This document shows, one piece after another, positions 41,753-47,930 of a stretch of 64,000 nucleotides of DNA. The stretch is from Flavobacterium sp. (lineage in GTDB: Bacteria; Bacteroidota; Bacteroidia; Flavobacteriales; Flavobacteriaceae): assembly GCA_044349645.1 (NCBI GenBank), contig JBIKQP010000001.1; one strand, given 5' to 3'. Numbering within the stretch: the stretch's first letter is position 1; each line of letters begins with the position of its first letter. Under the pieces are notes generated by a model. That model ran no database searches and was not told the DNA's origin. It worked only from the letters and a program-made list of their open reading frames with translations. A program made the position numbers and the translations under genes.

Positions 41753-41835
41753 CAAATATAACCTCGATATAAATTATACAAAATTGCTTCTTTGTAACAA
41801 TTTGATTACTTTTGAGGCAACATAAAAAAGGTATT

Positions 41836-42924
41836 ATGAGCATTGCTAAACACAATTGGACGAAAGAAGAAATTATCGCGATATACAACAAACCTATGAT
41901 GGATTTGCTTTTTGAAGCAGCTTCTATTCATAGAAAATCTCACGACCCAAACGTTGTACAAGTCTCTACTTTGTTATCTATTAAAACAGGTGGATGCCCA
42001 GAAGATTGCGGATATTGTCCTCAAGCAGCTAGGTATCATACGGAAATTGAAGGAAACGATTTAATGTCGGTGAGCCAAGTAAAAGCCCAAGCTTTAAGAG
42101 CAAAATCTAGTGGTTCATCACGCGTTTGTATGGGTGCAGCATGGAGAAATGTGAAAGACGGACCTGAATTTGACCAAGTTTTAGAAATGGTTCGAACCAT
42201 CAATAAATTGGATATGGAAGTTTGTTGCACGTTGGGAATGATTACTGAAAACCAAGCCCATCGTTTAGCAGAAGCTGGTTTATATGCTTACAATCACAAC
42301 CTAGATACCTCTGAAGAATACTATAAAGAAGTGATTTCTACACGCGGTTTTGAAGATCGTATTCAAACTATAGAAAATGTTCGTAAAACCAACGTAACCG
42401 TTTGTAGTGGAGGAATCATTGGAATGGGCGAATCTATAGAAGATCGTGCAGGAATGTTAGTTGCACTTTCTACTTTAAATCCGCAACCAGAATCGGTGCC
42501 AATAAATGCATTAGTTGCAGTAGAAGGAACGCCATTAGAAGAAGAAAAACCAGTTGAAATTTGGGAAATGATCCGAATGGTTGCAACCACAAGAATCGTT
42601 ATGCCTGAAACTCAAGTGCGTCTTTCTGCAGGGAGAATGAACATGAGCCGTGAAGGACAAGCGATGTGTTTCTTTGCTGGTGCCAATTCTATTTTTGCTG
42701 GCGATAAATTATTGACCACTCCTAACCCAGATGTGAACGAAGACATGAAAATGTTTGAAACATTAGGTTTAATTCCTCAAAAGCCATTTGTAAAAGTGTC
42801 TCAACCTACTACTGTTGAAGCCGAAGATTCTCAATATAAATCGTTAGGAGAAAAGCCAAAATGGTCAAGACCAGGACATAAAATCGAAAAGAATTTAGAG
42901 GCCTCAGGAAAAACAAATGCCTAG
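41836..42924 (+). CDS. bioB: Biotin synthase
   Basis: CPEDCGYC radical SAM motif, YNHNLDT, VRLSAGR, GANSIF. Start moved to ATG 41836. Confidence 0.97.
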   Translation: MSIAKHNWTKEEIIAIYNKPMMDLLFEAASIHRKSHDPNVVQVSTLLSIKTGGCPEDCGYCPQAARYHTEIEGNDLMSVSQVKAQALRAKSSGSSRVCMGAAWRNVKDGPEFDQVLEMVRTINKLDMEVCCTLGMITENQAHRLAEAGLYAYNHNLDTSEEYYKEVISTRGFEDRIQTIENVRKTNVTVCSGGIIGMGESIEDRAGMLVALSTLNPQPESVPINALVAVEGTPLEEEKPVEIWEMIRMVATTRIVMPETQVRLSAGRMNMSREGQAMCFFAGANSIFAGDKLLTTPNPDVNEDMKMFETLGLIPQKPFVKVSQPTTVEAEDSQYKSLGEKPKWSRPGHKIEKNLEASGKTNA

Positions 42925-43481: not shown

Positions 43482-44654
43482 TTACAAACTCAACAATACA
43501 CTTACCGCATTTCCACCAAAACCAACGGCATTCACCAAGATTTTTTTAAATGGTTTTTTTTGGGTTTTTGATCCCGCTTCCGCAAATGGAACTCCGATAA
43601 AAGTTTGATTTTGTAACATCAAAATTGCCATTTCAATACTTAACATTCCTGAGGCCCCAAAAGTATGACCGATTTTCCATTTATTGGTAGTTAACAAAGG
43701 AAGTTCTTCTCCAAATATTTTTTGAATCGCTTTGTATTCCGATAAATCGCCTTTAATAGTTCCCGGAGCGTGCATTACAACTACATCAACATCTGATAAT
43801 TTAGTATTTTCCAAAGCCATTTTCATCGATTTTTGAAAGCAAGTAGCCTCCGCAGAAACAGAAACATTGTGTTCTAAAATTTCTGTTGCATAACCAATTC
43901 CTTCAATAACAGCGATAGTTTTTTCAGTTCTTCCAATTTCAAGACAACAAACAGCAGCACCTTCGCCTAAAACAAGGGAGCTTTGTTTTTTATTTAGGTC
44001 CAAGGCGCGGCAAGGGAATTCATCATTATTTTTAGAATAAATTTTTAATGCTCGCATTTGAGCAATCGTAAAATTGGTTAAAGGAGCTTCGCTACCACCA
44101 ACCAAAAATTTATCAGCCATACCAGATTTTAACCAAGCTACTCCATTTAATAATGCGTGTAAAGCGGTTGAGCAGGTTATAGAATGTGAAATTTCTGGAC
44201 CTTCACTTTGTAAATCATGAGAAACCCACGATGAGATATTTCCAAGAGTAGTTGTTGGTGATGCCAGAGGTTCTACTTTCCCAGATTGGATGAAATCCAA
44301 ATGATGCTTTTCGAATAATTCCGTTGCGCCACGTGAAGATCCTATATTGATTCCAAAAGTAGCATTGTCCTGCCATCCTGCTTTCTCAATCGCTTTTCGG
44401 GAGGCAGCTATTGCAAATAAAACAGAATTATCGAGTGATTTGTATTTATTATCTGACTTTTTTAATTCACTTATTTGTTTTTTTGAATCAGAATTTAAAG
44501 GGGCAATAGCTGTATTTTGATTCCCAATAGTAGTTTCAATAAAGCAATGATTATCACTCATATAGTTTTGCCAAATAGAATTAGGATCATTTCCTAACCC
44601 AGAAATGGAAGCGATGGCTGTAATTGAAATCGTTTTTGGCAAAGTTGTTCTCAT
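43482..44654 (-). CDS. FabB/FabF-type beta-ketoacyl synthase in the biotin cluster
   Basis: C161 (ITCST), H295 (MHAPGT), H330 (IGHTFGASG), LGEGAA, GFGGN. Confidence 0.9.
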   Translation of the reverse strand: MRTTLPKTISITAIASISGLGNDPNSIWQNYMSDNHCFIETTIGNQNTAIAPLNSDSKKQISELKKSDNKYKSLDNSVLFAIAASRKAIEKAGWQDNATFGINIGSSRGATELFEKHHLDFIQSGKVEPLASPTTTLGNISSWVSHDLQSEGPEISHSITCSTALHALLNGVAWLKSGMADKFLVGGSEAPLTNFTIAQMRALKIYSKNNDEFPCRALDLNKKQSSLVLGEGAAVCCLEIGRTEKTIAVIEGIGYATEILEHNVSVSAEATCFQKSMKMALENTKLSDVDVVVMHAPGTIKGDLSEYKAIQKIFGEELPLLTTNKWKIGHTFGASGMLSIEMAILMLQNQTFIGVPFAEAGSKTQKKPFKKILVNAVGFGGNAVSVLLSL

Positions 44655-46709: not shown

Positions 46710-47864
46710 TTAAAATAATATTGTAGCAAGTATTTGCAACACTTCTGAGATTTCTTCTTTTGAATTGTAACTGTGCAAACAAAAACGAAGCCTTTCTTGT
46801 CCTTCAGGAACTGTTGGCGATAAAATAGCTTTTACATCAAATCCTTTTCCTTGGAGCTGGTTTGCAATGTTTTTTACTTTTTGATTACCCGGAATAATCG
46901 CACTTTGAATCGCCGATTTACTTCTCACAAAAAGAGGATTTAAACCCAATTGTTTTTTTTCTTGATTGAAATGAATTACGTTTTTTCTAAGTTTTTGAAG
47001 CGCTTCTTTTTCGGTTTGCAAATACTGATAAGCAATTAAAATGGTTGCTACCGAATGAGGCGAAAGGCCTGTTGTGTAAATAAAACTCCTAGCAAAATTG
47101 ACTAAGTAATCAATTAGTTTTTGACTTCCTAAAATGGCTGCTCCATGACAACCCAATCCTTTTCCAAAAGTCATAATTCTTGCAAAAACCGAATCTTGCA
47201 ACCCGACCATTTGAACTAATCCTTCGCCATTATCGCCAAAAACACCCAAGGCATGTGCTTCGTCAACAACCAAATAGCAGTTGTATTTTTCACAAATTTG
47301 AACAAGTTCTTCCAAGTTAGGAGTATCGCCATCCATTGAAAAAACACTTTCTGTAACCACAAAAATGGTTGAAGGTTGTTGGTTTTCGGGAGTTAGTTTA
47401 AGAATTATTCGTTCTAAATCTTCGAAATCGTTATGTTGAAATTTGTATGATTTGGCATTAGATAATTGGATTCCGTCTCGAATGGACGCGTGTGCTAATT
47501 CGTCGAATAGAATTAAATCATTGCGTTGCGGAACGGAACTAAAAAATCCCACATTGGCATCGTAACCAGAATTAAATAGTAAAGCACTTTCCGATTGGTG
47601 AAATTTTGCAATATAGTTTTCTGCTACTTGATAAACGATATGATTTCCAGATAATAACCTGGATCCTGTTGCTCCGTTTTGTAAAATATTATTTTCAATT
47701 AAAAAGGAATGCGTTCCAGTAAAAATAGCTTCAGATTTAGAAAATCCCAAGTAATCATTGGAAGCAAAATCGATTAAATTATTAGGCAATGCCAATTTCC
47801 GCAAAGAATTATTTTGCTCACGATGCTCTAATTTTAATGCTACTGATTTTGGAATTCTTTTCAT
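46710..47864 (-). CDS. bioF: 8-amino-7-oxononanoate synthase
   Basis: FASNDYLG, SGYDAN, HASI, ESVFSMDGD, DEAHA, TFGKG, plus cluster context. Confidence 0.93.
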   Translation of the reverse strand: MKRIPKSVALKLEHREQNNSLRKLALPNNLIDFASNDYLGFSKSEAIFTGTHSFLIENNILQNGATGSRLLSGNHIVYQVAENYIAKFHQSESALLFNSGYDANVGFFSSVPQRNDLILFDELAHASIRDGIQLSNAKSYKFQHNDFEDLERIILKLTPENQQPSTIFVVTESVFSMDGDTPNLEELVQICEKYNCYLVVDEAHALGVFGDNGEGLVQMVGLQDSVFARIMTFGKGLGCHGAAILGSQKLIDYLVNFARSFIYTTGLSPHSVATILIAYQYLQTEKEALQKLRKNVIHFNQEKKQLGLNPLFVRSKSAIQSAIIPGNQKVKNIANQLQGKGFDVKAILSPTVPEGQERLRFCLHSYNSKEEISEVLQILATILF

Positions 47865-47930
47865 AAGGATACAAAAGTAAGCAACTTTATTTTGTTGTTA
47901 TTTCTAAATAAATATTGTTTTTTAGTATTT

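Follow-up and report, generated by a model that had tools for sequence, protein, structure and literature searches.

The biotin locus and its beta-ketoacyl synthase

The stretch of DNA considered here (the window) comprises 64,000 nucleotides of a Flavobacterium sp. genome, which is available as 2.0 Mb in 57 contigs and is 89% complete. It carries genes for biotin synthesis and, next to them, a gene for a divergent FabF-like beta-ketoacyl synthase, referred to below simply as KAS. The list of open reading frames (ORFs) and Pfam and NCBIfam searches of the window place bioF, bioD, bioA and KAS in a head-to-tail run on the minus strand, in which KAS is the last gene and the spacers are 21, 29 and 64 nt, with bioB on the opposite strand at a distance of 0.56 kb from KAS. 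This agrees with the initial annotation of the DNA, where a co-oriented bioF-bioD-bioA-KAS run with bioB about 0.6 kb away had been described. The genes of the locus are as follows.

46710-47864, minus strand: bioF (8-amino-7-oxononanoate synthase), first gene of the operon; TIGR00858, 356 bits; PF00155
46020-46688, minus strand: bioD (dethiobiotin synthase); TIGR00347, 129 bits, cut-off 83; PF13500
44719-45990, minus strand: bioA (adenosylmethionine-8-amino-7-oxononanoate transaminase); TIGR00508, 536 bits, cut-off 405
43482-44654, minus strand: KAS, divergent FabF-like beta-ketoacyl synthase of 390 amino acids; PF00109 and PF02801
42962-43450, plus strand: recX, between bioB and KAS and convergent with KAS
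41836-42924, plus strand: bioB (biotin synthase), which forms its own transcription unit and converges on the operon; TIGR00433, 404 bits

A sharply bounded family of FabF-like enzymes

On the fabF equivalog model TIGR03150, KAS scores 153 bits, below the cut-off of 493.75, and it is not assigned by any NCBIfam model; the single other KAS I/II gene of the genome is the housekeeping FabF (C21:563-1816). An AlphaFold2 model of KAS, for which 110 family members were in the alignment, reached a mean predicted local distance difference test (pLDDT) score of 95.9 and a predicted template modelling (pTM) score of 0.95, and its top Foldseek matches are FabF structures with template modelling (TM) scores of 0.86-0.90 and 20-25% identity. 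When KAS was compared by exhaustive phmmer search with 1.84 billion cluster representatives, 415 of them matched at E <= 1e-30, the best 150 all with at least 241 bits. In relatives, KAS orthologues score at least 229 bits and FabF paralogues at most 116 bits, and the family is therefore sharply bounded. A protein atlas search with KAS returned just generic names for Bacteroidota beta-ketoacyl synthases.

Conservation was counted in an alignment of 139 full-length family representatives, each standing for one 50%-identity cluster, in which Cys161, His295, His330, Lys325 and Gly-Phe-Gly 378-380 are all invariant (139/139). The replacement of the active-site Cys that marks non-condensing ketosynthases, of the chain-length factor or KSQ type, is thus absent throughout. 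As judged by these invariant residues, KAS is a divergent, catalytically intact FabF-like condensing enzyme, whose Cys161-His295-His330 triad had already been recognized in the initial annotation, together with the motif NAVGFGG (residues 375-381) in place of NSFGFGG in FabF. With E. coli FabF (PDB 1KAS, 2GFW), KAS has in common the fold, the Cys-His-His triad, the catalytic Lys and the gate Phe of GFGG (F379), whereas the back gate, the pocket lining and the HGTST motif are changed. This last motif, part of the phosphopantetheine pocket of FabF, is HAPGT in the KAS family, with Pro297 and Gly298 as family-specific replacements of a Thr and a Ser; because FabF Thr305 is replaced by the invariant Pro297, carrier handling may differ from that of FabF. 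The codons of the catalytic residues, and of the arginine discussed next, lie on the minus strand at the following positions.

44331-44333, minus strand: Arg108, on the back-gate residue Ile108 of FabF in phmmer and MAFFT alignments; invariant (139/139)
44172-44174, minus strand: catalytic Cys161, aligned with the active-site Cys of FabF; invariant (139/139)
43770-43772, minus strand: catalytic His295, in HAPGT where FabF has HGTST; the His is invariant
43680-43682, minus strand: catalytic Lys325; invariant (139/139)
43665-43667, minus strand: catalytic His330; invariant (139/139)

An invariant arginine at the back gate of the acyl pocket

In E. coli FabF, I108 and F202 gate the acyl pocket at mid-depth, at about C7-C8 of the bound chain, and the substitution I108F limits elongation to short chains (PMC9006962). 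An alignment by hand had put Arg108 of KAS on this Ile, and the same placement is obtained with phmmer against solved FabF structures, where GSSRG of KAS lies over GSGIG of FabF, and with MAFFT against the genome's own FabF, where Arg108 falls on Ile109, the equivalent of FabF Ile108. The arginine of the SSRG motif is invariant in all 139 family representatives, and the FabF pair Ile108/Phe202 corresponds to Arg108/Met200 in KAS, so that a hydrophobic back gate of the FabF type is not found. Further near-invariant residues that are specific to the family are S132 (Ile in FabF), T135 (Met), T136 (Ile), S158 (Val), T160 (Ala), Q199 (Gly), F195 (Ala) and E115 (Gln). By homology with FabF, the side chain of Arg108 would point into the acyl pocket, and the polar members of this set would line it in place of hydrophobic or small residues. 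Glutaryl-acyl carrier protein (ACP) methyl ester, once on the cysteine, has about the length of a C7 acid (PMC9006962).

Conservation of the KAS locus

Gene order was compared in the 80 best loci from named genomes, which include Flavobacterium psychrophilum, F. hydatis, Zobellia, Cellulophaga and Galbibacter. The order bioF-bioD-bioA-KAS is kept in 76 of them and KAS directly follows bioA in 79, so that the synteny anticipated in the initial annotation is near universal. It also extends to members with 35-48% identity, one of them from another class of the phylum, which likewise lie in bio operons. In distant lineages the bioA stop overlaps the KAS start, and representatives at 36-38% identity are found in operons such as bioB-bioF-bioD-bioA-KAS with gene overlaps of 4 nt. 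Across the 80 loci, no ACP, reductase, dehydratase, methyltransferase, esterase or coenzyme A (CoA)-transferase gene is consistently linked with KAS.

Distribution in Flavobacteriales and Bacteroidota

The occurrence of KAS was followed in 301 evenly drawn Flavobacteriales genomes and in another 301 genomes sampled from the phylum; some of these searches scored the top candidates of each genome only. In the order sample, bioB is present above cut-off in 111 genomes, a KAS orthologue in 80, a BioE-like protein in 18, all of one family, and a BioC-like protein (E <= 1e-25) in 8, a single one of which exceeds the curated cut-off. The genomes with KAS, BioE-like or BioC-like proteins all fall within the 111 that have bioB, and there is no overlap between the three groups, such that 106 bioB-positive genomes each carry exactly one of the three. 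KAS was found in none of the 190 order genomes without bioB. BioC stayed below its cut-off in every one of the 80 genomes with KAS and also in six complete genomes in which all candidates were scored. The anti-correlation suggested in the initial annotation is therefore seen across this sample, where KAS is confined to bioB-positive genomes and never accompanies BioC or BioE.

The other five bioB-positive genomes (G215:C1:783795-784712, G235:C1:2800428-2801345, G051, G096 and G251; loci L095-L097), the only ones in which bioD was checked directly, have neither bioD nor KAS, and in the three neighbourhoods examined bioB has no other bio gene beside it. Three of the five belong to the genus of the window; the surroundings of bioB were inspected in two of them and include neither bioF nor bioA. 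In these three KAS and bioD are thus absent together; KAS is kept in 20 of 24 other genomes of the genus. The genomes that retain bioB only could convert scavenged dethiobiotin. In one genome the KAS orthologue, directly upstream of bioB at G292:C40:16091-17226, is split into two overlapping frames, through either a sequencing error or a true frameshift that makes it a pseudogene.

Outside the order, KAS orthologues are rare, with two genomes in the phylum sample. Both homologues lie in bio clusters and keep the arginine, as GSSRG and GSARG, and BioC was not found in either genome. The family also occurs in genomes of 1.1-2 Mb.

Known pimelate routes in this genome

The established routes to pimelate are those of BioC/BioH, BioI/BioW, BioZ and BioE (PMC12704756, PMC12915131). 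The window had been described as lacking bioC, bioH, bioG, bioW and bioI, which holds, and in the whole genome likewise none of them is found above threshold. The best scores are 55 bits for BioC (TIGR02072, cut-off 185) and 70 bits for BioH (TIGR01738, cut-off 207), BioG (PF04301) has no match, nothing exceeds the cut-off for BioW, and no cytochrome P450 was found. The protein with the best BioC score was rejected as a candidate, being clearly MenG/UbiE (260 bits on that model).

For BioE, the query was a 207-amino-acid BioE-type protein recovered from a Weeksellaceae-like genome (locus L094), where a MocR-type bioL is divergent from bioE-bioF-bioD, followed by bioB-bioA, in agreement with the published order (PMC12704756). 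An earlier bioE candidate had been dropped as a BioF-like paralogue outside any bio operon. The 207-amino-acid protein has no match in the window's genome. Of three FabH-like genes, none close to the bio locus, two are true fabH, and the third (G000:C12:14436-15494; L011:1498-2556, minus strand), encoding a divergent protein of 352 amino acids, scores 200 bits against a KAS III subfamily cut-off of 249. No known route, whether through BioC, BioG, BioH, BioW, a P450 or BioE, was found in this 89% complete genome, and the absences repeat in relatives that are 99-100% complete. KAS is left as the sole candidate in the genome for building the seven-carbon pimelate arm of biotin.

Comparison with known condensing enzymes of biotin synthesis

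A close parallel is BioZ, a FabH-type enzyme that condenses glutaryl-CoA with malonyl-ACP and in which S84, R147 and S287 at the bottom of the tunnel are thought to neutralise the free carboxylate of the glutaryl group (PMC8024396). According to the authors who described BioZ, the keto-pimeloyl-ACP that it forms passes into type II fatty acid synthesis (PMC12915131). Like KAS, BioZ is a condensing enzyme encoded inside a bio cluster where BioC/BioH are absent (PMC7645780, PMC8024396); the one Arg and two Ser that hold the carboxylate in BioZ are matched by an invariant Arg and Ser/Thr in the KAS family, and the product of KAS would also be 3-oxopimeloyl-ACP, to be finished by type II fatty acid synthesis. 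The two differ in that BioZ is a KAS III enzyme (FabH fold, Cys-His-Asn, ACP_syn_III), whereas KAS belongs to KAS I/II (FabF fold, Cys-His-His, PF00109/PF02801), and the resemblance is therefore convergent and not homologous. They differ also in that the glutaryl-CoA of BioZ comes from lysine catabolism, with no such source identified for KAS, and in that BioZ is the one characterised at the bench.

The nearest precedent with a FabF-type enzyme has been described in Desulfovibrio vulgaris, where the cluster DVU2558-2565 includes, next to the FabF-like DVU2563, genes for a dedicated ACP and for FabG-like and FabZ-like proteins, and all of these are required for growth without biotin (PMC10102598). 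With support from random barcode transposon-site sequencing (RB-TnSeq), this cluster was proposed to make pimeloyl-ACP from malonyl-ACP without methyl esters, possibly by means of less hydrophobic active sites (PMC10102598). Here too, bioC and bioH are absent from the organism and its bio cluster includes a KAS annotated as FabF. Beyond this KAS, the Desulfovibrio cluster encodes an ACP, a nitroreductase-like protein, a reductase resembling FabG and dehydratases resembling FabZ, whereas the flavobacterial clusters carry KAS alone, and accompanying ACP, FabG-like and FabZ-like genes of this kind are neither present in the window nor conserved in the 80 loci. The initial annotation had presented a FabF-type pimelate enzyme as new; given the genetic support for the Desulfovibrio protein, this is less unprecedented than was implied (PMC10102598).

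In the same order as KAS, the BioE-BioL system of the Weeksellaceae fills the same gap in the pathway and is likewise encoded beside bioF (PMC12704756, PMC12915131). BioE is unrelated to KAS, being a ferritin-like diiron oxygenase of about 207 amino acids without a Pfam family, which acts by oxidative C7-C8 cleavage of long acyl chains, and the two do not co-occur in the order sample (18 genomes with BioE, 80 with KAS).

Open-access papers and bioRxiv preprints yielded no description of the flavobacterial biotin-operon KAS or of its route. Taken with the comparisons above, the genes suggest that KAS, like BioZ, is a ketosynthase dedicated to biotin, but one that has the FabF fold and stands alone in its bio cluster.

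Proposed role in pimelate synthesis and its alternatives

The restriction of KAS to bioB-positive genomes, its joint absence with bioD from the genomes of the genus that retain bioB only, the lack of overlap with BioC and BioE, the intact catalytic residues and a predicted pocket that is polar and cationic at the depth a C5-C7 diacid would reach together argue for a dedicated condensing enzyme. We consider it probable that KAS elongates an unmasked omega-carboxy acyl thioester to 3-oxopimeloyl-ACP, and propose that it supplies the pimeloyl thioester of BioF in those Flavobacteriia that are without BioC/BioH, BioW/BioI, BioZ and BioE. An acyl thioester with a free omega-carboxylate would load onto Cys161, where Arg108, about C7-C8 deep at the back-gate position, would bind the carboxylate with the assistance of invariant Ser, Thr and Gln residues. 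His295, His330, Lys325 and Phe379 would then decarboxylate malonyl-ACP and form 3-oxopimeloyl-ACP, which the housekeeping FabG, FabZ and FabI would reduce to pimeloyl-ACP, and BioF, BioA, BioD and BioB would complete the pathway. In this scheme, we infer which substrate is taken, that Arg108 contacts its carboxylate and that the housekeeping reductive enzymes take part. A FabF-fold enzyme for an unmasked dicarboxylic chain had been put forward in the initial annotation, and that idea has gained the synteny, the non-co-occurrence, the invariance of the Arg and its position on Ile108, while its chemistry and primer stand as proposals.

If KAS acts in this manner, glutaryl-ACP or glutaryl-CoA, elongated in one round as with BioZ, is a possible primer, slightly ahead of malonyl-ACP. 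It fits the depth of the Arg and has the precedent of BioZ; set against it are the lack of a clear glutaryl thioester source in the searches made and the fact that the KAS family thrives in genomes of 1.1-2 Mb. Malonyl-ACP, elongated in two rounds, would need no outside primer, and is a slightly more doubtful choice. The fullest form of this idea makes KAS the single extra enzyme, which would carry out both condensations (malonyl to 3-oxoglutaryl, and glutaryl to 3-oxopimeloyl) with FabG, FabZ and FabI reducing the products and without methyl esters, and here Arg108 and the polar pocket would hold the free carboxylate of malonyl-ACP. We regard this form as rather unlikely; were it true, BioC, BioH and lysine-derived glutaryl-CoA would all be unnecessary, and the presence of the gene in streamlined genomes of 1.1-2 Mb would be explained.

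Several points weigh against the proposed role as a whole or against its variants. The sampled genomes are interrelated, so that the distribution counts are not independent events, and the window's genome is only 89% complete. For a glutaryl source, the best score on the lysine 6-transaminase model TIGR03251 is 105 bits (cut-off 521), and NCBIfam does not assign any of the genome's four acyl-CoA dehydrogenases to glutaryl-CoA dehydrogenase. The normal primer of FabF-type enzymes is acyl-ACP and not acyl-CoA. In the variant that starts from malonyl-ACP, the free end of 3-oxoglutaryl-ACP is a beta-keto acid, which is prone to decarboxylation. The equally invariant Glu115 could pair with Arg108 and simply plug the pocket.

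Among other explanations, the one that survives best keeps KAS in biotin synthesis and gives it other chemistry, such as priming with or decarboxylation of malonyl-ACP, formation of an odd-chain precursor that is later oxidised, or acyl transfer between CoA and ACP for imported pimelate. The linkage and the phyletic pattern do speak for a role in biotin synthesis and not for a particular reaction, and the replacement of FabF Thr305 by Pro297 leaves room for a change in carrier handling. All residues of the decarboxylative Claisen condensation are nevertheless invariant, neither an oxygenase (P450, BioE) nor a BioW-type ligase that would complete such routes was found in the genome, and the Arg lies at a depth that corresponds to a C5-C7 diacid, which makes these reactions improbable as the function of KAS.

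Next to be weighed is a cryptic methyl-ester pathway of the BioC/BioH kind, with an unrecognised methyltransferase and esterase encoded elsewhere, in which KAS would be a specialised elongation enzyme that handles the intermediates better than FabF. The esterases of this pathway are very diverse and include BioH, BioG, BioK, BioJ and BioV (PMC12915131), and the genome encodes several generic alpha/beta hydrolases and S-adenosylmethionine-dependent methyltransferases, with the BioH-like and BioC-like scores given above. The best BioC-like protein is, as mentioned above, MenG/UbiE, however, and the absence of BioC at cut-off extends to all 80 KAS-positive genomes and to the six complete genomes with every candidate scored. 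No methyltransferase or hydrolase is conserved beside KAS in the 80 loci, and an invariant cationic Arg with polar neighbours would suit a free carboxylate better than an ester; we accordingly rate the methyl-ester pathway as highly improbable. That KAS is an ordinary fatty-acid or secondary-metabolite paralogue, left beside the bio genes by inheritance in Flavobacteriia and with no role in biotin synthesis, is hardly credible, for although extra FabF-like paralogues (about 100-116 bits) occur in many Flavobacterium genomes and gene order can be inherited within a single order, KAS is missing from all 190 genomes without bioB, and the three genomes of the same genus that retain bioB alone lack both KAS and bioD. 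The linkage of KAS, moreover, persists in another class and down to 35% identity, where KAS is translationally coupled to bioA, and its predicted pocket is polar and cationic, not lipophilic.

Further features of the locus and its relatives

Upstream of the two transcription units lie two copies of the same promoter-like sequence, both read directly from the DNA.

47872-47880, minus strand: promoter-like box TTACTTTTG (TAnnTTTG type of Bacteroidota), 7 nt before the ATG of bioF
41806-41814, plus strand: identical 9-mer TTACTTTTG upstream of bioB

Farther upstream, the two regions also have AAATATAATT-like stretches in common. The sharing of TTACTTTTG and AAATATAATT could stem from a promoter or operator used by both units, or could be fortuitous, the DNA being AT-rich; scans for sigma-70 promoters and for terminators performed no better than on shuffled sequence. 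The listed bioB ORF opens at TTG 41812, inside the TTACTTTTG box. Because translation from ATG 41836 gives 362 amino acids, the same length as in relatives, this ATG is probably the true start and the listed one 8 codons too early.

The nearest named relatives of the genome are Flavobacterium species and freshwater metagenome-assembled genomes, and the stretch was recovered in lake-water metagenomes. Freshwater metatranscriptomes include contigs with 95-99% identity to the window, which span parts of bioF, bioD and bioA and positions 44017-44450 of KAS, over which the Arg108 codon is unchanged. Since RNA libraries can carry DNA, and the contigs show neither strand nor transcript ends, these matches are compatible with expression of the bio operon and no more.

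In many Flavobacterium operons (L014-L091), insertions of 0.5-3.7 kb are found between bioF and bioD; the window operon has none. The inserted genes include those for a nuclease of the PD-(D/E)XK_3 family, DUF2007 and TraB/GumN proteins, a sigma-70 factor and a membrane protein; they are not conserved across loci and were rejected as partners of KAS. At the locus of the out-of-class genome G405, a 519-amino-acid ORF without a Pfam family (L098:3367-4926, plus strand) lies between bioB and bioF, and two more small ORFs lie between bioA and KAS; none of these has an informative family match. By tblastn, 57 of the 80 loci have a recX gene downstream of KAS and oppositely oriented to it, mostly within a few hundred bases, and the corresponding ORF cluster spans 61 loci. 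This gene is a stable neighbour, though probably an unrelated one.

Implications for biotin synthesis in Flavobacteriales

Synthesis of the pimelate arm differs by lineage, with four established routes and the Desulfovibrio cluster as a genetically supported fifth. None of the four established routes is present in most biotin-making Flavobacteriales, among them fish pathogens (for example F. psychrophilum) and lineages that are abundant in lakes and in the sea, and 80 of the 106 sampled genomes of the order with a fuller pathway carry KAS instead. If the proposed role is correct, a single gene would close the pimelate gap in these Flavobacteriales, and KAS would be a second case, independent of the first, in which a condensing enzyme of fatty-acid synthesis has been adapted to dicarboxylates, this one starting from the FabF fold. 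It would offer a compact part for the production of biotin or pimelate, and its recognition would correct genome-based predictions of biotin auxotrophy in aquatic Bacteroidota.

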